Translations under genes and position numbers: made by a program | Assembly (NCBI GenBank): GCA_041694355.1 | Contig: JASMTK010000012.1 | Location: 11,201 to 75,200, forward strand | Length of the DNA: 64,000 bases | Source: Arcobacteraceae bacterium | Lineage (GTDB): Bacteria > Campylobacterota > Campylobacteria > Campylobacterales > Arcobacteraceae | Direction of reading: 5' to 3' | Shown: in pieces, positions 5,993 to 31,831 of the stretch | Layout of the letters: each line of letters begins with the position of its first letter | How positions within the stretch are numbered: the stretch's first letter is position 1 | The notes under the pieces: generated by a model | What the model saw: the letters and a program-made list of their open reading frames with translations, nothing else | Told to the model about the DNA's origin: nothing | The model's database searches: none

Positions 5993-7558
5993 TTAGTTTT
6001 TTGGAAGAACTAAAGAGAAACTTGCACCTATATAATCTTTTTCTTTATATTTAAAGCTTTTATTTTTAACTTCAATATGTCCTTTCATATGCTTTCTTAC
6101 TATTTCATCTGACATATAAAGTCCTATTCCTGTACCTTTTGATTTGTGTTTTGTAGTAAAGTATGGTTCAAATATTCTATTTTTTATCTTCTCATCAATT
6201 CCACCAGCATTATCTAAAACTCTTATGATAATATCTTTTTCTTTTACAATCACATCAATAAATATAAGTTTCTTTCTTAATGACTCTTGTTTTTTAAGCT
6301 CATCACTTGCATTATTTAAAAGATTTACAATAACCTGTATGAGTTCATTTTTAAATGTATGTACTTTAATATCATTAATATTTTGAATTAAATCAATTTC
6401 ATGGGATTTAACTTTTGTTTTTATTAAGTTTATTGTGTACTCAATTACTTCACTTACATAAAATGTTGTTTTTTGATAATTTGGTTTAAAAAAGTCACTA
6501 AAATCATCTATAGTTTTTGAAAGGTATTGAGAACTTGTATTTATATCATTTAAACCATTTGTTAAAGTCTCTTTGTCTAAAGTTCCTGTGTCATTTTGTA
6601 TTTTCATTCCAGTTGATAAAACAGAGATTACAGATAATGGTTGTCTCCATTGATGAGCGATATTCTCCAACATTTCACCCATTGCTGCCATTTTTGATTG
6701 TCTTTGCATTATATCTTCATAATCCATCAACTCTTTTTTTATTTTAGCAACCTCTTCTTTTAAAGTTTTATTATAATTCTCTAACTTCTTGTTTACTTCT
6801 GTTTTTTGTTTTTCTATTTCTAACCTCTCACCTATATCTTTAGAAATAGCCATAATATAGTCTCTACCCCTATAGCTTTTAAAAATCAAAGAGGTTTCCA
6901 CATACACATAACTTCCATTTTTAGTCTTATATTTACCATAAGTTATAAGATTTTTAGTATTTTGTATCTCTTTAAATACCTCAGGAATCTCTTTTGATTC
7001 TAAAATAGCTGTTCGTAAATCAGAAATTTTAATACTCTTTAACTCTTCATTTGTATATCCAAGTGTCTTACAAACCTTCTCATTTGCAAACTCTATAAAA
7101 TGAGTCTCATAATCTACTAAAAAAACCATATCACTTGACTCTTTTATAAATTCAAAATATAGATTTATTTTTTCATCTTGTAGTATTTTTTGTGAGTTGT
7201 CAGAAACATAAGATATGAGGTGATCTTTTCCATTTATATCAACAATTCTAGAGTTTATTTTCACAGGAAAAACTAATCCATCTTTTGTTTTGTGTTCTGA
7301 TTCTATGGTAGTTGGATTTTCTTTATTTTTTTGAAACTCTTTAAACTTCTCAAAAAACAACTCTTTATTATTTTTAATATCAACATCCCAAACATTTAAT
7401 TGCATCATCTCTTTTCTTGAATAGCCTAAGCTCTTACATGCTGTACTATTTGCAAATAGTATTCTACCTGTGTAAGAGATTAGATATATAGCTTCATTTG
7501 CTAACTCTAATGATGTTTTTAAAAGATATTGAATATTATTTCTTTTTATTCTAGCCAC
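5993..7558 (-). CDS. Cytoplasmic double-PAS sensor histidine kinase
   Basis: Two PAS-like repeats; ENIAHQWRQPL H-box; DNAGG; FEPYFTTK; GTGIGL; GTG start. Confidence 0.88.
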   Translation of the reverse strand: MARIKRNNIQYLLKTSLELANEAIYLISYTGRILFANSTACKSLGYSRKEMMQLNVWDVDIKNNKELFFEKFKEFQKNKENPTTIESEHKTKDGLVFPVKINSRIVDINGKDHLISYVSDNSQKILQDEKINLYFEFIKESSDMVFLVDYETHFIEFANEKVCKTLGYTNEELKSIKISDLRTAILESKEIPEVFKEIQNTKNLITYGKYKTKNGSYVYVETSLIFKSYRGRDYIMAISKDIGERLEIEKQKTEVNKKLENYNKTLKEEVAKIKKELMDYEDIMQRQSKMAAMGEMLENIAHQWRQPLSVISVLSTGMKIQNDTGTLDKETLTNGLNDINTSSQYLSKTIDDFSDFFKPNYQKTTFYVSEVIEYTINLIKTKVKSHEIDLIQNINDIKVHTFKNELIQVIVNLLNNASDELKKQESLRKKLIFIDVIVKEKDIIIRVLDNAGGIDEKIKNRIFEPYFTTKHKSKGTGIGLYMSDEIVRKHMKGHIEVKNKSFKYKEKDYIGASFSLVLPKN

Positions 7559-7625
7559 TTGCTAACCAACTTATGTTTTTGTTATTTTTATATAATTATA
7601 GCAAAGTCTAGTTTATATACAAATT

Positions 7626-7659
7626 CTGTCATTGGTTTGTAACTTATAAATGCTAAGAT
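7626..7659 (+). promoter_or_regulatory. Pho-box-like tandem repeat plus extended -10 promoter of the phoH-like gene
   Basis: CTGTCAT-tggt-TTGTAAC (7626-7643, 11-bp period) ends 10 nt before TG-c-TAAGAT (hexamer 7654-7659); ATG is 6 nt downstream with no SD. Confidence 0.6.
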
Positions 7660-7665
7660 TTTCTT

Positions 7666-9048
7666 ATGAAAGATAAAGTATATGTATTAGACACAAACAT
7701 AATATTGCAAAATATTCAAAATCTTAATAAAATTTCTGATAAAAAAACAAATACAATAATAATCCCAGAAACAGTACTATTAGAACTTGAAGACAAGAAA
7801 AAGCTGACAAATGAGTTAGGTTTTTACTCTAGAGAATTTGCAAGATTACTAGCAAAGATGAAGATAAAAGAGGTTGATTATAAAACAGGTTATAAAGTTG
7901 TAAAATTTTACAATGATGATTTAGATTTGCATATAATCTCAAAAGATACCTATGAAACAGAAATTGAACAAGTGCATATAAGTGAAAGCAACGATAAAAG
8001 AATAATTGAGGTTGCATCCATAGCACAGGAGTATTACAAAGGCTATCAAGCTATTTTCTTATCACTTGATGTTTATGCAAGAACATTTGCTCTTTTTAAA
8101 GGTATAAAAACTGAAACTTTACATGAAGATAAATCAACAGTACCAAACTTTGAGTTTTTAAAAAAACTAGAATTAGATTCATCTTGTTTTAACAGTTTAG
8201 AAAAAAAAGATATTTTATCAATAGACAAAGAGTATACACCTCAAAACTTCTCTTATAATTTTGAAAGTTCTGATGGGAATTGTACTTTTGCTATTGTTTA
8301 CAACAATAAACTTGACTTACTAAAAGAGTCAGATTTTAAAAATCTAAATATAAAACCAGTAAATCTAAAACAGAAGCTTTTTACAAAAGCTATTTTATCA
8401 AATATGTATGATTTATTAGTAATAGATGCAAAAGCTGGTAGTGGTAAAACACTTATGTCATTAGCTAGTGCTATGAGACTTATAGATTTAGGAGCATATG
8501 ATAAGATTGTTTATGTTAGAAACTCTATAGAGTCACTTGATAAGGGTGCTGATGTGGGTTACCTAGCTGGAAATGATGAAAAATTTAGAGTTTACAATAT
8601 GGCTTTATATGATACATTAGAGTTTATTGCAAAAAAACAACTTAAAAAAAGTGAAAATAGAGAGAACCAAGAATCAATAGAATCAAAAATCAATGAGATG
8701 CAATCTAAGTATTGTATTGAAACATTATGGCCAGGAGAAGCAAGAGGTAGAACACTATCTGGTGCTATTGTGATAATGGATGAATGGCAAAATAGTTCAG
8801 AAAAAACTACGCAATTAATTCTATCAAGACTTGATGAATCTTGTATGGCTATTGTAATTGGTTCAAATCGTCAAATCGATAATTTATATTTAAATAAATA
8901 TAATAATGGTCTAACAACTTTACTTAAACAAACTAAAGTTAAACATGATGAACTTAAGATGTTTGCTATTGAGTTAGATAAAGCTGTTAGAGGTAAATTT
9001 GCACAATTTACAGAAAGAATTTTTGAAAAGAAAAACAATAACAACTAA
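7666..9048 (+). CDS. PIN-PhoH (PhoH2-type) RNase/ATPase
   Basis: N-terminal PIN motifs (VLDTN, ELE, SND, SLD); Walker A AGSGKT; RGRT; DEWQN. Confidence 0.9.
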   Translation: MKDKVYVLDTNIILQNIQNLNKISDKKTNTIIIPETVLLELEDKKKLTNELGFYSREFARLLAKMKIKEVDYKTGYKVVKFYNDDLDLHIISKDTYETEIEQVHISESNDKRIIEVASIAQEYYKGYQAIFLSLDVYARTFALFKGIKTETLHEDKSTVPNFEFLKKLELDSSCFNSLEKKDILSIDKEYTPQNFSYNFESSDGNCTFAIVYNNKLDLLKESDFKNLNIKPVNLKQKLFTKAILSNMYDLLVIDAKAGSGKTLMSLASAMRLIDLGAYDKIVYVRNSIESLDKGADVGYLAGNDEKFRVYNMALYDTLEFIAKKQLKKSENRENQESIESKINEMQSKYCIETLWPGEARGRTLSGAIVIMDEWQNSSEKTTQLILSRLDESCMAIVIGSNRQIDNLYLNKYNNGLTTLLKQTKVKHDELKMFAIELDKAVRGKFAQFTERIFEKKNNNN

Positions 9049-9058
9049 GGAATAAAAA

Positions 9059-10738
9059 ATACAAAATAGATTAATAAATGACACAATTTATAGTCACATA
9101 GAATATACAAAGCTTGAAGATAAAATTCTTCAAACAAAAACAGTTAATAGATTACAGTTTATAACTCAAAATGCATTAGCATATTTCTCTTATCCATCAA
9201 TTACGACTAAGAGATTTATACACTCTTTAGGGACAATGCATTTAGCTTCATTTATGTTTAAAAACTCTCTTTTAAATGCAAACAAAAGCGCTAAAAACTC
9301 TTTCTTGGATGAACTAAAAGAGGTGATTTATAAAATAATAAAAGAGGATAATTTAAAACTTGATTTAAAAGATATGGAGTATTTTGATAATAAAGCTTTA
9401 TATCAATTTAATATCCCAACGAAATCAAAATCCCATAGAGCAGCATACTGTATTGTTTTACAAACTATTAGAATAGTAGGTTTGCTTCACGATGTGGGTC
9501 ATTTACCTTTTTCTCACCAAATAGAATATGCCTTAAAAAAAGTTTACTATAAAATCATAGAAAAAGAGAAAAACAATGAAGCACTTTTAGGAAGAGAAGT
9601 AGAGTTTAAAAATACTTATGAAGAGATTACAGATTTTACAAACAATGTACTTCACGAAGCAATAGGAAATGAACTTTTAAAATTATTATTTAGATATGAA
9701 TTAAAAGATTTAATCAAGAAAAATGTAGATAAAGAGTACATAAAACTTATTGAAAGACTATCTTTACTTATACTTGAAGAAGAGACTTACAACGGCTTTG
9801 ATTTTAAGGTTTTACATAATTACATTGATAGTACAGTAGATGCAGATAGATTAGATTATGTAAATAGAGATATGTTAGCAAGTGGTTATATAACAGGTCC
9901 AAGTGATCATATCAGAATCACGAAACAGACAGTTTTAGTAAAACATAATGATAAATTTGTATTAAGCTTTTTTGATATGGCACTGATTGATATTGAGCAT
10001 ATGTTAGAAATGAGATTTAATCTTTATAAAAAAGTTATCTATAATCATGGAATTGCTAAAACAGATGCACTTTTAGAAAATGTGGTTCAATATCTTTCAA
10101 ATAACTATTTTAACAATAGAATTAATTCTGCAAATGGTGAAGATAATATCTCAATGCTTTGGAACTTTAAAAAAGATGATACTGAAAGAGAGTTAGATAC
10201 TATTTCTTTACTAGATGAGAACTGGCTAATCTCACTTTTCAAAAAAGAGTATTTTTTTATAAAAGAGAAACAAAAACAAACAGCTAGAGATAAAAAATAC
10301 CTTTATTGCTTTGAAGAGGTTTTATTTGGGAAAAGAAGGTTTAAATCCCACTGGAAAAACCTAAATGAATTCTATAAAGAGTTGGGGTTTGAAACGGTAC
10401 AAAGATATAAGTTTAGAGAGAGTTTTGGATATATTACAGAACATAGAGCAAAAGTTCTTCAAAAAGAGCTTGATGAGTTTACTAAAAGATGGGAAGATAA
10501 AAAAGAGGATATTTTCTTTACATATCAGATTGTATCATTTAAGATTGGTATTCAAAAAGACTTTTGTTTATTTGATGGTGAAAACCTAATAAACATCGAT
10601 GAAGTGTCAACTTTAAGAAAAAGACTTAAACACTCGATGCTAAATACTGTTCCTTTTTATATTTACTCAAATAAGAAAAACCTAAATGAAAAAATGAAAA
10701 AAGAGTTAAAAGAGATTATTTTAAAAATCTTCTCTTAA
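9059..10738 (+). CDS. SAMHD1/COG1078-like HD phosphohydrolase, probable ATA start (559 aa)
   Basis: Conserved N-terminus (NDTIYSHIE...RLQFITQ...YPS...RFIHSLG) lies upstream of the ORF-track Met 9236; LLHDVGH; DADRLDYVNRD; SD AAGGA 7 nt before ATA 9059; in-frame TAA at 9053-9055. Confidence 0.85.
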   Translation: MQNRLINDTIYSHIEYTKLEDKILQTKTVNRLQFITQNALAYFSYPSITTKRFIHSLGTMHLASFMFKNSLLNANKSAKNSFLDELKEVIYKIIKEDNLKLDLKDMEYFDNKALYQFNIPTKSKSHRAAYCIVLQTIRIVGLLHDVGHLPFSHQIEYALKKVYYKIIEKEKNNEALLGREVEFKNTYEEITDFTNNVLHEAIGNELLKLLFRYELKDLIKKNVDKEYIKLIERLSLLILEEETYNGFDFKVLHNYIDSTVDADRLDYVNRDMLASGYITGPSDHIRITKQTVLVKHNDKFVLSFFDMALIDIEHMLEMRFNLYKKVIYNHGIAKTDALLENVVQYLSNNYFNNRINSANGEDNISMLWNFKKDDTERELDTISLLDENWLISLFKKEYFFIKEKQKQTARDKKYLYCFEEVLFGKRRFKSHWKNLNEFYKELGFETVQRYKFRESFGYITEHRAKVLQKELDEFTKRWEDKKEDIFFTYQIVSFKIGIQKDFCLFDGENLINIDEVSTLRKRLKHSMLNTVPFYIYSNKKNLNEKMKKELKEIILKIFS

Positions 10739-10786
10739 TTCTTTAAAGAAGTTTTGATAAAATTCACCAAAAAATAAAGAGAGTTT

Positions 10787-11152
10787 ATGATTTTAGGTGA
10801 TTGTCCCTATTGTTCAGGAAAAGTTTTATCAAAAAATATAAATGTAAATGGTAAAAAAGTTAAGTTATATAGCTGTGAAAATTCAAAAAAAGAGTATGAT
10901 GAAAGTGAACAGTACGTTTTTTCAGCAGACTCAACTTGTAGATTTAGAGTCTATTCAAATGCTTTTAAAAGATGGAATAAAAGAAGTTTTAGTGAAAATG
11001 AGATGAAAAGACTTTTAAGAGAGCAGCAAGCTGTTGTAAGACTTCACGGTAGAAAAGGTACAAGTGAGTATTTCAAATATGTAATTCCCCATGAAGAGTA
11101 TGGAGTATCTATACTTTGGGAAGAAGAAGTAGAAGAGCAAGACACCTTTTAA
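10787..11152 (+). CDS. Small Cys-containing protein resembling a Zn-ribbon plus topoisomerase C-terminal repeat
   Basis: CPYC, further Cys residues, CRFRVY...SENEMKRLL pattern; own promoter TG-a-TAAAAT at 10755-10763. Confidence 0.5.
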   Translation: MILGDCPYCSGKVLSKNINVNGKKVKLYSCENSKKEYDESEQYVFSADSTCRFRVYSNAFKRWNKRSFSENEMKRLLREQQAVVRLHGRKGTSEYFKYVIPHEEYGVSILWEEEVEEQDTF

Positions 11153-11724
11153 AACAGGTGTCCAAAATGCTCTTTTTTTGTATTTATATAATTTTCGTTG
11201 TATTCATTCAACTGGGTTATAGCTGGAATCCTCTTTACTATTGTAACTCCAATTGACTCAACAAAATTGATTTTCTCAGGATTATTTGTGATTAACTTTA
11301 GTTGTTTTATATCTAAGTCATTTAAAATATACTCAACTATACTATAATCTCTTTCATCCTCTTTAAAGCCTAATTCAATATTAGCTTCAACTGTATTTCT
11401 TCCTTGGTCTTGTAAAGCATAGGCATTTACTTTATTTAACAATCCAATATTTCTACCTTCTTGACGATGATAAATAACTAAACCACCCTCATTTGAGATA
11501 AAATCTAACGCTAAATTTAGTTGATTTTGACAATCACACTTTAAACTACCAAGTGCATCACCTGTAAGACATTCGCTATGAATTCTAACATAAGGAGCTT
11601 CTAATTTTTCAAATCCATCACTCATAATTGCTAAATGTTCTTGTTCATTTTGCTTATATGCTTTAATATAAAATTTACCATGTTTAGATGGAAGTTTTGC
11701 AATATTTGATTTTAATATTTCCAT
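11149..11724 (-). CDS. ribA: GTP cyclohydrolase II
   Basis: VRIHSECLTGDALGSLKCDC; QEGRNIGL; LITNNP. Confidence 0.96.
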   Translation of the reverse strand: MEILKSNIAKLPSKHGKFYIKAYKQNEQEHLAIMSDGFEKLEAPYVRIHSECLTGDALGSLKCDCQNQLNLALDFISNEGGLVIYHRQEGRNIGLLNKVNAYALQDQGRNTVEANIELGFKEDERDYSIVEYILNDLDIKQLKLITNNPEKINFVESIGVTIVKRIPAITQLNEYNENYINTKKEHFGHLF

Positions 11725-29076: not shown

Positions 29077-29101
29077 AAAGACCCACGAAAAGTGAGTCTT
29101 T
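29077..29101 (-). terminator. Terminator after the MCP gene
   Basis: AAAGAC-c-CAC-gaaaa-GTG-a-GTCTTT hairpin. Confidence 0.5.
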
Positions 29102-31569
29102 TAGAATGTTTCCCATTCATCATCAGATGATGAGTTATCTTTTATTGAAGTATGTTGTGTAGTGTTTTTATTATAACTATTTTTTGGTTTTGATGAAGAG
29201 TTATTTGTTGTTTTTCTCTCATTTGTCATTTCAGTGTAACTACTTTGGTTGTTGATTTTTAAATCTTCAACCTCACGTGTAACGTCAATGTTATTTTTAC
29301 CCTCAAACTCTTTTTCATTTGCTTTACTTACAATACTTTTAGCTAGTTCTGAAGTACTTAGTGCAATATTTCTTGTTTCACTTGCCACTGAAGCATTTTT
29401 CTGAGTTTGTTGGTCTAGTGAATTAATAGCATCGTTTATTTGAACAATACCTGTTTCCTGCTCTTTTGAAGCACTTGAAACATCAGATATCAACTCAATA
29501 GTTTTATCAATATTGCTATTTAATCCTGAATAACCTTTTATCATCTCATCAGCAATATTTTTACCCTCATTTGCTTTTATGTTTGCATTTTCAACAAGTG
29601 ATTTAATCTCATTTGCTGCATCAGCACTTCTATTTGCTAAGTTTCTTACTTCTTGGGCTACTACTGCAAAACCTTTCCCTGCTTCACCTGCTGTTGCTGC
29701 TTCTACTGCTGCGTTTAAACTTAATATATTTGTTTGGAATGCTATTTGATCGATTATTGTTATTGCTTCATTGATTGATGTTACTTGTGTATTAATCTCA
29801 TCCATAGCATCTGTTGTTTTTGTAGCTAAACTTTGACCTTCACTTGCTGAGTTTGTAACCTGATTTGCTAGATTTGACATCTCAGAAATCTTATGAGTTG
29901 TTGAAGTTACATTTCCTGTAATCTCTTCTAAAGCAGCAGCTGTTTCTTCAAGTGATGCAGCAGCTTCATTTGAAGCTTGATTTAACGTCTCAACATTTGC
30001 TAATAACACATCAGATGAACCATCCATGATTAGTCCACTTTTCTTATTGTCAATCAACATTTGCGTTGTTGCATTTCCAAGAGAATTAACTCCATTTGAT
30101 AATTTTAATAGATGTTCTTTTAATCCATCTGTTTTTACTCTTGGTACATAGTTGTATTTTGAGTACTGCTCTAACACATCAAGAATACTATCGATATTAT
30201 CTTCTAAGTTATCCGCCATTTGATTTAATACATCTTTTAACTTATTAAGTGCTGGGTTCTCAACTGAGGTGTTGATTCTTTGTCTTAAATCACCTTGCTC
30301 AAACTCATTTAATACAGAGATTGTCTCTTCAATTATGTCTCTATCTTCATCAATAGATTTTTTAGCTTTTTGAATATTTTCATTTACAACTTTTGCCATC
30401 AATCCAATTTCATCAAAGCTATCACTCTCTAACTCAACAACCTCTTTTGACTCTCTGTTTATGTATTTAAAGAATCCTTCTAAACCTTTTTGGAATCTCT
30501 CTAATCTTTTAACTACCACATTATTTATAATAATAATTGCACCAATAACAACTAATGCAAGTAATACAACTGCGATAATCAAAATTAAATCTCTAATTGC
30601 ATTTGGTGTTTTTAGTACTTCTGCCTCATCTATTTCTGAAATAATTGCCCACTTTAAATTTTCACTTATATTTAAAGGTGCGTATGCTGAAAGTACTGGG
30701 TTTCCATTGTAGTCTGTAATAACTTCTGTATTTTTCTTACCTGCTAAAGCCTCTTTTGTAGCTTTAGTATCAACTTTTGAGTTATTTGAAAATGAAGCTT
30801 TTAAACTATGACCATCAGGGTCTAAGTAACTATCACTTCTCATTAACATATCAGAACCTACTAAATAGTCCTCTTGTGAATCACCATAACCTTTTCTAAA
30901 CTGCATAATGTTGTTTATAGCTCTATCACTAATCTGAAATACCAATATAGCTTTTAAATTACCATTTTCATATACAGGATTACCTATAAACATTGCAGGA
31001 GCATTGTTACTTGGTGCATAAGGTCTCATATCTACATATGTAACTTTATCATTTTGTAAAGTTTTTCTCCATACTTCACCTAATCCACTATCTTTTAAAG
31101 AACCATTTTTTAAATTTGCACCATAATCAGACTCTTTTGTAGCTGTATAAATAACATGCCCTGTATTAGGAGTGATTAAAAATACGTCATAATATCCATA
31201 CTCTTTAATATAATTTTGAAAGAAATTTTCAAAAGGTTTTGTAGCATTTTGCACTTCACTTGAACTTACATCATAACTTGAACCACTATTTAAACCAACA
31301 GTTGAAAATGTCTGTTCTAAACTATGATATAGTTTTTTTACATCTGAACTGTTTGCTAAAACTTTTATATCACCAATTCTTTCATCAAAAAACTTTTGAA
31401 TTTGATTTGATTTAGAGTCTCTAGCAGCTGTAAGCATAGAGTAGCTTTGATTTATTAATCCCTCTTTTGCTTTAGTTACTGAAAAACCTGCAAGAATAAT
31501 AGTAAGTAAACTTAAAGATACTACTATTAAAACAATCACTTTTGCTTTGATTGTTAGTTTTTTATGTAT
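29101..31569 (-). CDS. Methyl-accepting chemotaxis protein with dCache-like sensor, probable ATA start
   Basis: [37 protein letters not shown] signalling domain; TM-sensor-TM-HAMP; SD AAGGGA 5 nt before ATA 31569 gives [10 protein letters not shown] ahead of TM1. Confidence 0.9.
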
Positions 31570-31831
31570 TCTATTCCCTTATATTAAATTTTATCTGATT
31601 ATAAAATAAACAATATTTATATTTCATTAATTAAGTTACTTTTTTATAACTAACAAAAACATATCTTTTAAGAAATATTTAATGTTGGTATTCTTACTAA
31701 GTTTTGTTACATTACTGTTACATAACATTTAGTTATTTATAACCGCTAAAATAACTTTTATATGTTTTTTTATATGTTAATTACATATAATTAATATTTT
31801 GATACAATACAAAAAAATCAAATGGATGACT

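Follow-up and report, generated by a model that had tools for sequence, protein, structure and literature searches.

The described systems that stand closest to the gene pair reported here are phoH (psiH) of Escherichia coli, mycobacterial PhoH2, the SAMHD1-type hydrolases of deoxynucleoside triphosphates (dNTPs) and, with respect to translation initiation, infC and pcnB of E. coli. The pair encodes a PIN-PhoH2 protein and a SAMHD1-like HD phosphohydrolase, and lies in a stretch of 64,000 nt from an Arcobacteraceae bacterium of the order Campylobacterales (GenBank assembly GCA_041694355.1, contig JASMTK010000012.1, positions 11,201 to 75,200 of the forward strand). This whole stretch is called the window below, and coordinates given without a contig name refer to it.

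The PhoB-dependent E. coli phoH likewise encodes a PhoH-family P-loop ATPase, and its promoter likewise has a repeat of 11-bp period that replaces the -35 element and is located 10 nt ahead of the -10. In E. coli Pho boxes, the best conserved half-site is CTGTCAT (PMC4415409), whereas the Arcobacteraceae Pho box described below reads (T/A)GTAAC-N5-TGTAAC. Other differences from E. coli phoH are that the protein here is of the PIN-fused PhoH2 type, that its mRNA is apparently leaderless, that the gene is coupled to one for an HD hydrolase, and that the regulation is a predicted one. Mycobacterial PhoH2 has the same PIN_4 plus PhoH architecture as our protein, and the NCBIfam PhoH2 model aligns with the latter over its whole length, but below the equivalog cut-off; a phoAT-like upstream open reading frame (ORF) is lacking here, and the partner is instead a downstream HD enzyme. 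Other PhoH2 lineages have been reported beside long structured RNAs (bioRxiv 10.64898/2026.10.21.760802). A search of the locus against Rfam gave no RNA family, and the PhoH2-associated structured RNA of those lineages was not seen.

The HD protein has its catalytic motifs and fold in common with SAMHD1, Enterococcus faecalis EF1143 and Bacteroides BT4208, but it is only ~15% identical to them and carries its own ~50-residue insertion and a family-specific C-terminus of ~200 residues. As to its start codon, E. coli infC (AUU) and pcnB (AUU) are likewise genes with an AUA, AUU or AUC (AUH) start behind a good Shine-Dalgarno (SD) sequence, which has been conserved for long and presumably gives low or IF3-sensitive expression (PMC9723500). 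The present case differs from these in gene and lineage, in that the codon is mostly AUA, and in that the upstream cistron is predicted to be leaderless, which is another IF3-sensitive initiation class (PMC9031893). The elements of the locus are as follows.

7626..7643, plus strand: tandem direct repeat CTGTCAT-TGGT-TTGTAAC (CTGTCAT 7626-7632, spacer TGGT 7633-7636, TTGTAAC 7637-7643; core TGTCAT-N5-TGTAAC, 11-bp period), candidate site of a PhoB/OmpR-family regulator, from sequence and cross-genus conservation.
7651..7659, plus strand: extended -10 TGcTAAGAT (TG 7651-7652, TAAGAT 7654-7659), ending 6 nt ahead of the PhoH2 ATG (7666), from sequence and orthologous promoters.
7666..9048, plus strand: PIN-PhoH2 gene, 460 aa, with an N-terminal PIN_4 nuclease domain and a C-terminal PhoH P-loop ATPase, from Pfam.
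9047..9051, plus strand: SD sequence AAGGA of the HD gene, sharing 2 nt with the PhoH2 stop TAA (9046-9048), from sequence and relatives.
9059..10738, plus strand: SAMHD1-like HD phosphohydrolase gene, 559 codons, start ATA 9059-9061 (7 nt downstream of the SD sequence), from comparative sequence, phmmer and AlphaFold2/Foldseek.

All the sequence features named in an original prediction, which had been made from this DNA alone, were found again where it had placed them. The best overall explanation of the locus, to which we lean with some reserve, is that these elements would form an operon switched by a Pho-type regulator, in which a leaderless PhoH2 and an HD enzyme started at AUA serve a joint role in starvation. 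The parts of this explanation differ in strength, and the start codon of the HD gene is treated first.

The HD frame is opened by TAA 9053-9055 and contains no ATG, GTG or TTG until codon 61 (ATG 9236), which encodes the Met within the catalytic HSLGTMH. Since this ATG lies past the invariant residues R53 and H56 and only near-cognate codons precede it, the real start is to be sought upstream of 9236. An SD sequence overlapping the PhoH2 stop and an ATA start, both proposed in the original prediction, can be read directly in the sequence, and the relatives show how strongly the latter has been kept. For the census of starts, 184 genomes of the family were searched and the HD orthologue was located in 118; the junction was read in 115 species, at the codon five places ahead of the I in I-N-D (start-Q-N-R-L-I-N-D). 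This codon is ATA in 70, ATT in 10 and ATC in 10 species, amounting to 90 of the 115 and to 10 genera; it is TTG in two species and ATG in two, and the remaining genera have a slightly altered N-terminus with ATG three or seven codons ahead of the I. AAGGA is found 6-8 nt before the start position in essentially all relatives, and in at least 61 species ATG, GTG and TTG are all missing from the open frame ahead of the conserved HD N-terminus. In codons 2-61, variability at the first, second and third positions is 0.054, 0.017 and 0.264, respectively (84 species), and because variation is thus biased to third positions, these codons are translated in the HD frame and under purifying selection.

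The species compared are related and cross-species counts are therefore not independent; a PhoH2 tree of 88 species unites those with an AUH start in a single clade (71 rows, support 100) and shows one origin of this state. Within this clade about 13 interchanges among ATA, ATT and ATC have occurred, and none to ATG. The AUH codon has been kept also in the 31 species where a spacer provides a promoter for the HD gene alone, and in most of those with HD unlinked from PhoH2, so that the AUH start is independent of translational coupling. One observation weighs against the start as read here: in about 30 of the AUH species the same frame also offers a TTG, GTG or ATG farther upstream, in most cases within the PhoH2 gene or immediately ahead of the SD sequence; given the conserved SD-AUH arrangement, the downstream AUH is the more likely start in those species, too. 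The absence of a canonical option, the right distance from the SD sequence, the agreement of relatives and the selection on coding thus come together at one codon, and on these comparative grounds we regard initiation at AUA 9059 behind AAGGA as real and strongly conserved.

That the HD protein is made in some other way, i.e., from the internal ATG 9236, by frameshift or readthrough from PhoH2, or not at all from a decaying gene, is hardly credible. AUA is a poor initiator in E. coli. IF3 of this bacterium discriminates against near-cognate start codons (PMC9723500), and public gene calls often start the HD protein at MHLAS or MFKNS (494-503 aa), all of which could speak for such a view. A start at 9236, however, would drop R53 and H56 and would leave the strong purifying selection on codons 2-61 in the HD frame unaccounted for, and a decaying gene does not agree with the absence of internal stops from the HD genes of 118 genomes. 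Recoding into a PhoH2-HD fusion was considered as a candidate and ruled out, for stops separate the two frames (TAA 9053-55 here, TAA-TAA in sister species), the frame relation varies among species, and the same AUH and SD sequence persist at a lone HD gene having no gene upstream. The short database entries lack part of the active site; this is because gene callers disallow ATA, ATT and ATC starts. The start positions of public entries for the HD family differ by up to ~80 residues.

If the start is as proposed, it is an obligatory near-cognate start outside the classic infC and pcnB, kept in about 90 species with no switch to ATG within the clade, while TTG or ATG occupies the same codon elsewhere, and it would lend itself to any experiment on the reasons for which bacteria retain weak start codons. 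It also discloses a systematic annotation error, by which many entries of the HD family have lost at least 60 residues, a catalytic His among them. The AUH start probably holds the HD hydrolase at a low level, as judged from the codon.

For the identity of the second gene product, the HD model of Pfam matches barely above threshold, and more information was obtained from comparison with solved structures. By phmmer, the protein matches SAMHD1-type PDB chains down to 9e-10: residues 5-67 pair with the beginning of the catalytic core in SAMHD1, in the C. elegans SAMHD1 orthologue and in 2hek, and the motifs KRFIHSLG, LLHDVGHLPFSH and DADRLDYVNRD align with SAMHD1, 6pwy and 2hek. Residues R53, H56, H145, D146, H149, H154, D264, D267, R271 and D272 are invariant across the family alignment and fit the R-x-x-H, HD-x-GH-x-PFSH and D-x-D-R-x-D-Y-x-x-RD motifs of these chains. 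An AlphaFold2 model built from 30 homologues (pLDDT 80.5, pTM 0.81) was submitted to Foldseek, and the top matches were solely BT4208, SAMHD1 (including the C. elegans orthologue) and EF1143, with probability 1.0 and TM 0.45-0.6. Because of these motifs, fold neighbours and invariant catalytic residues, the HD protein can be classed by sequence and predicted fold as a SAMHD1-like enzyme of the SAMHD1/EF1143 type, and the identity given to it in the original prediction, like that of the PIN-PhoH protein, holds. It is probably a dNTP triphosphohydrolase. Against this activity count the low identity to the solved dNTPases (~15%), the insertion of ~50 residues between the first His and the HD dyad, and the C-terminal region of ~200 residues, which has no assigned role; the protein also stays below the threshold of TIGR01353 (18.5 vs 152 bits).

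In the product of the first gene, Pfam finds PIN_4 at residues 6-152 (7.1e-22) and PhoH at residues 229-453 (6.8e-37), so that a PIN domain and a PhoH P-loop ATPase are present within a single polypeptide. Walker A GSGKT and DEWQ are visible in the translation, the solved PhoH of PDB 3b85 is matched, and PHROG 2765, a phage PIN-PhoH family, matches end to end (1.8e-72). The NCBIfam equivalog for RNA 5'-3' helicase PhoH2 (NF053827) gives 101.4 bits against a cut-off of 680, and the protein is best placed by these scores as a distant subfamily of characterised PhoH2. A second PIN-PhoH2 paralogue, ~45% identical, is present at another locus in most genomes of the family; in the assembly studied here it is fragmented at contig ends (C30:8209-9207 and C32:3-761).

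In mycobacteria, a toxin-antitoxin-type system that affects a stress regulon has been reported for PhoH2 (PMC7390352), and the genes here are tightly juxtaposed, the second being presumably of low expression. It may thus be asked whether PhoH2 is a toxin-like RNase with HD as a modulating partner, the two making a stress-stasis module without nucleotide hydrolysis. We consider this very unlikely. No small antitoxin ORF is found upstream, where the intergenic region of 107 nt contains the promoter and the mRNA is probably leaderless; the invariance of its catalytic residues points to HD being an enzyme; in many species the two genes are separated; and the equivalog score given above is far below its cut-off. 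The reading of the pair as a starvation operon of two enzymes is retained in what follows.

Linkage of the two genes was surveyed in the 111 resolved species. PhoH2 ends no more than 40 nt from the HD start in 62 of them, and a spacer of 61-315 nt (mostly 230-315 nt) lies between the genes in another 31, belonging to genera g6, g10, g13 and g17; the tight gene pair claimed in the original prediction is thus borne out by linkage within ~320 nt in 93 of the 111 species. The gap is larger in two species. Two facts speak against too strict a view of the pair: no PhoH2 gene is found within ~1.5 kb upstream of HD in 16 of the 111 species, so that the pair is not obligate, and in several genomes PhoH2 is present and the HD gene was not detected. 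Four of the spacers were translated, and a gene of ~40 aa was found in antisense orientation, the C-terminus of which reads GCGCG...C; it resembles the FeoB-associated Cys-rich membrane protein (weak FeoB_associated match, 23.7 bits).

The HD orthologue is distributed over 15 of the 22 genera of the family and was found in none of 24 sampled genomes belonging to other families of the order. Its identity is 84-87% within the genus and 56-75% to other genera, divergence tracking taxonomy. The neighbours of the pair are genes for a PAS histidine kinase, ribA, ppiC and a GGDEF protein, and between HD and these neighbours one more ORF is to be mentioned.

10787..11152, plus strand: ORF of 121 aa, Cys-rich (CPYC...C...C), 48 nt past the HD stop; possibly a third member of the unit, which is uncertain.

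This ORF and ppiC are common to several genera downstream of HD, the ORF being found there in six relatives of four genera. It matched nothing in Pfam, NCBIfam, PADLOC or PHROGs, and its end overlaps that of the convergent ribA by 4 nt. Distant relatives of the HD protein, with 30-48% identity, occur mostly in Bacillota, and a PhoH-like gene was found within 4 kb at only one of 80 such loci (Bacillota and others). Because identity tracks taxonomy, flanks are shared and PhoH linkage is near zero outside the family, these comparisons indicate that the pair belongs to the chromosome, has been passed on vertically and is particular to Arcobacteraceae, and that it is not a mobile defence module.

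The same data bear on the antiphage role that the original prediction had offered as an alternative, according to which PhoH2 would degrade RNA and HD would deplete dNTPs on infection, the weak start limiting autotoxicity. Enzymes of the HD type that deplete dNTPs are known as defence genes. The families of phage proteins include relatives of both PIN-PhoH and HD, and PADLOC gives a weak dGTPase match to HD (5.8e-5 over 38 residues). This match is, however, confined to the HD motif; PADLOC and PHROGs returned nothing past generic domain matches at the pair, and no defence island was found. Neither defence nor mobile genes lie beside the pair, whose neighbourhood is conserved and of housekeeping character. 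Together with the vertical inheritance within one family and the lack of PhoH2 linkage outside it, this leaves the antiphage role highly improbable, and we return to the view of a starvation operon.

A scan of 7400-11300 with sigma-70 consensus and terminator models was uninformative, giving 24 promoter-like sites where 23.6 were expected, and the promoter was studied by comparing orthologues. Beyond about -50, the upstream sequences of the PhoH2 orthologues show no relationship; what they share are two elements at fixed positions, namely an extended -10, TGnTAnnAT, ending 5-6 nt from the PhoH2 ATG, and a tandem TGTNAY-N5-TGTNAY ending 9-10 nt ahead of the -10. TAnnnT ends 4-7 nt from the ATG in 64 of 79 orthologous promoters. 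No SD sequence lies ahead of the PhoH2 ATG in the window, and because the -10 ends 6 nt from this ATG, the predicted transcription start is at the A of the start codon and the mRNA would be without leader. Both the placement of the -10 and the lack of an SD sequence are those of a leaderless mRNA, and the PhoH2 mRNA appears, as far as its sequence tells, to be one. Four more distant genera have PhoH2 with a conventional SD leader.

The leaderless-type placement of the -10 is rare genome-wide, being found at 22 of 1716 long ORFs. As an observation on the genome at large, the ~1.3% of long ORFs for which an extended -10 ends 5-7 nt from the ATG make a candidate leaderless set, and 21 of the 22 have no SD sequence.

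The second shared element is the tandem repeat, which in the window ends exactly 10 nt before the -10 hexamer (gap 7644-7653). The original prediction had singled out this placement, and the site proves to be a conserved repeat of OmpR/PhoB type with the same 11-bp phasing as at the pst genes. The genome encodes pstSCAB-phoU and a PhoB/PhoR-like pair (phoBR) on contig C87. In the pstS promoter aGTAACCAAAATGTAAC is followed by 10 nt and TATACT, and in the pstC promoter TGTAACCATCTTGTAAC is followed by 10 nt and TATAAT; repeat period and distance to the -10 are identical to those of the PhoH2 promoter, and the pstS site is kept in 28 genomes of the family. This supports (T/A)GTAAC-N5-TGTAAC, located 10 nt ahead of the -10, as the putative Pho box of Arcobacteraceae. 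The pattern TGTNAY-N5-TGTAAC occurs three times in the window, where shuffled sequences give an expectation of 0.06, and 14 times genome-wide at N5 spacing against 2-8 times at other spacings, an enrichment put at two- to three-fold.

For a position weight matrix (PWM), only pstS sites from other genera served as the training set, and the background was taken from the window's genome alone (1716 control upstream windows). Its top intergenic matches in this genome are upstream of pstS, pstC, a gene that is phnD-like by eye and a GntR/UTRA regulator gene; since the pst genes are among the top matches, the matrix can be read as a family Pho box. The site at C21:2808 lies upstream of the phnD-type gene, whose label as a binding protein is by eye only. 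Two Pho-box-like sites, C128:101438 and 101543, precede the GntR/UTRA regulator gene. Another gene with a Pho-box-like site, at C119:26193, looks leaderless and was labelled a metallophosphoesterase, by eye only.

This matrix gives no more than 2.8 bits to the PhoH2 site in the window, the range in the genus being 0.9-6.1 bits; its second half-site is a perfect TGTAAC, and the first is TGTCAT rather than GTAACC. This low score is a point against Pho control, and so are the facts that ~2.7% of the control windows reach it somewhere and that dozens of OmpR-family regulators, any of them a possible binder, are encoded in the genome. In contrast, 31 of the 79 orthologous PhoH2 promoters, from 11 of 15 genera, score 9 bits or more, a level that 0.7% of control windows attain, and the best site ends 18-20 nt from the ATG in 53 of the 79. 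A box is present also in the own promoters of detached HD genes in g13 (7.6-15.4 bits) and g17 (7.9-9.8 bits). The Pho reading is based on geometry and on orthologous promoters, and not on the window site alone. Judged from these promoters, a Pho-type box is ancestral at the PhoH2-HD locus and most degenerate in the genus of the window. The likeness to E. coli PhoB promoters asserted in the original prediction therefore stands for spacing and phasing, while the exact match to CTGTCAT is coincidental, since relatives read TGTTAT, TGTAAT, TGTCAT or TGTAAC; its Pho-box identity agrees with the pst promoters in geometry, but in this genus very little with the pstS matrix. Pho control of the window copy itself is in our opinion only moderately likely, with due reserve for the degenerate first half-site.

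It may alternatively be supposed that another member of the OmpR family binds the repeat, in answer to a signal other than phosphate, and that the likeness to pst sites reflects DNA recognition at the level of the regulator family. The PhoH2 boxes depart systematically from the pstS box at half-site 1 (TGTCAT or TGTTAT vs GTAACC) and score low in this genus, other candidates for binding are plentiful among the OmpR/PhoB-like regulators, and intergenic matches to the loose pattern also occur before genes for an NhaC-type antiporter, a TAXI binding protein and an ATP-grasp protein, which have no obvious link to phosphate. Yet a matrix from the pstS sites of other genera still recovers PhoH2 promoters at the same position in most genera, and detached HD promoters as well, and its intergenic top matches are pst genes plus two sites possibly tied to phosphonate use. 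A different regulator is on balance doubtful, and the Pho-type reading is used below.

Under the starvation-operon explanation, transcription would start at or beside the A of the PhoH2 ATG from the extended -10 promoter, the -35 region of which would be replaced by the tandem TGTNAY-N5-TGTAAC, a weaker version of the family Pho box. This site would most likely be bound by the pst-linked PhoB/PhosR-type regulator, turning the operon on under phosphate limitation. Translation from the leaderless AUG would yield PhoH2, in which a PIN RNase is joined to a PhoH ATPase/helicase. The HD enzyme would hydrolyse dNTPs, and its AUH start would keep its level low, possibly in a manner conditional on initiation fidelity; a low level may be favoured because an excess of a dNTP-destroying enzyme is, as we propose, harmful. 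Both proteins may thus trim RNA and deoxynucleotide pools in starvation or growth arrest.

The pools of dNTPs are tiny relative to RNA. For this reason, the phosphate scavenging from nucleotides suggested in the original prediction is quantitatively implausible as a main role so far as dNTPs are concerned; throttled control of dNTP pools or RNA in starvation fits better, and restraint of replication or pool imbalance is a more plausible outcome than release of phosphate from dNTPs. The locus would then provide a PIN-PhoH2 protein placed, together with a SAMHD1-like enzyme, in a regulatory and functional context that can be tested, and a Pho box defined for Arcobacteraceae.

Leaderless translation in E. 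coli is inhibited by IF3, enhanced in infC fidelity mutants and reportedly favoured by ppGpp (PMC9031893). A starvation gate of two layers might therefore be imagined, in which a Pho-type activator acts first and both the leaderless AUG and the SD-led AUH then need relaxed initiation fidelity; in E. coli, IF3 acts against either kind of start, and a low amount of it relative to ribosomes is favourable to leaderless translation. We regard this extension as unlikely. If it were true, the dNTP-destroying enzyme would be made only in deep starvation, and selection would have kept AUH, and never AUG, across 10 genera for this purpose. An AUU start of infC in the same genome would have backed control through IF3, and infC appears to start there at TTG or ATG, giving no such backing.

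A further Pho-box-like site in the window lies apart from the pair. It is a perfect TGTAAC-N5-TGTAAC box (14.9 bits) at 31706-31722 on the minus strand, followed by 9 nt and TAAGAAT, upstream of a gene for an 812-aa methyl-accepting chemotaxis protein (29101-31539, minus strand). This protein is a candidate for Pho regulation and possibly a phosphate-taxis receptor.

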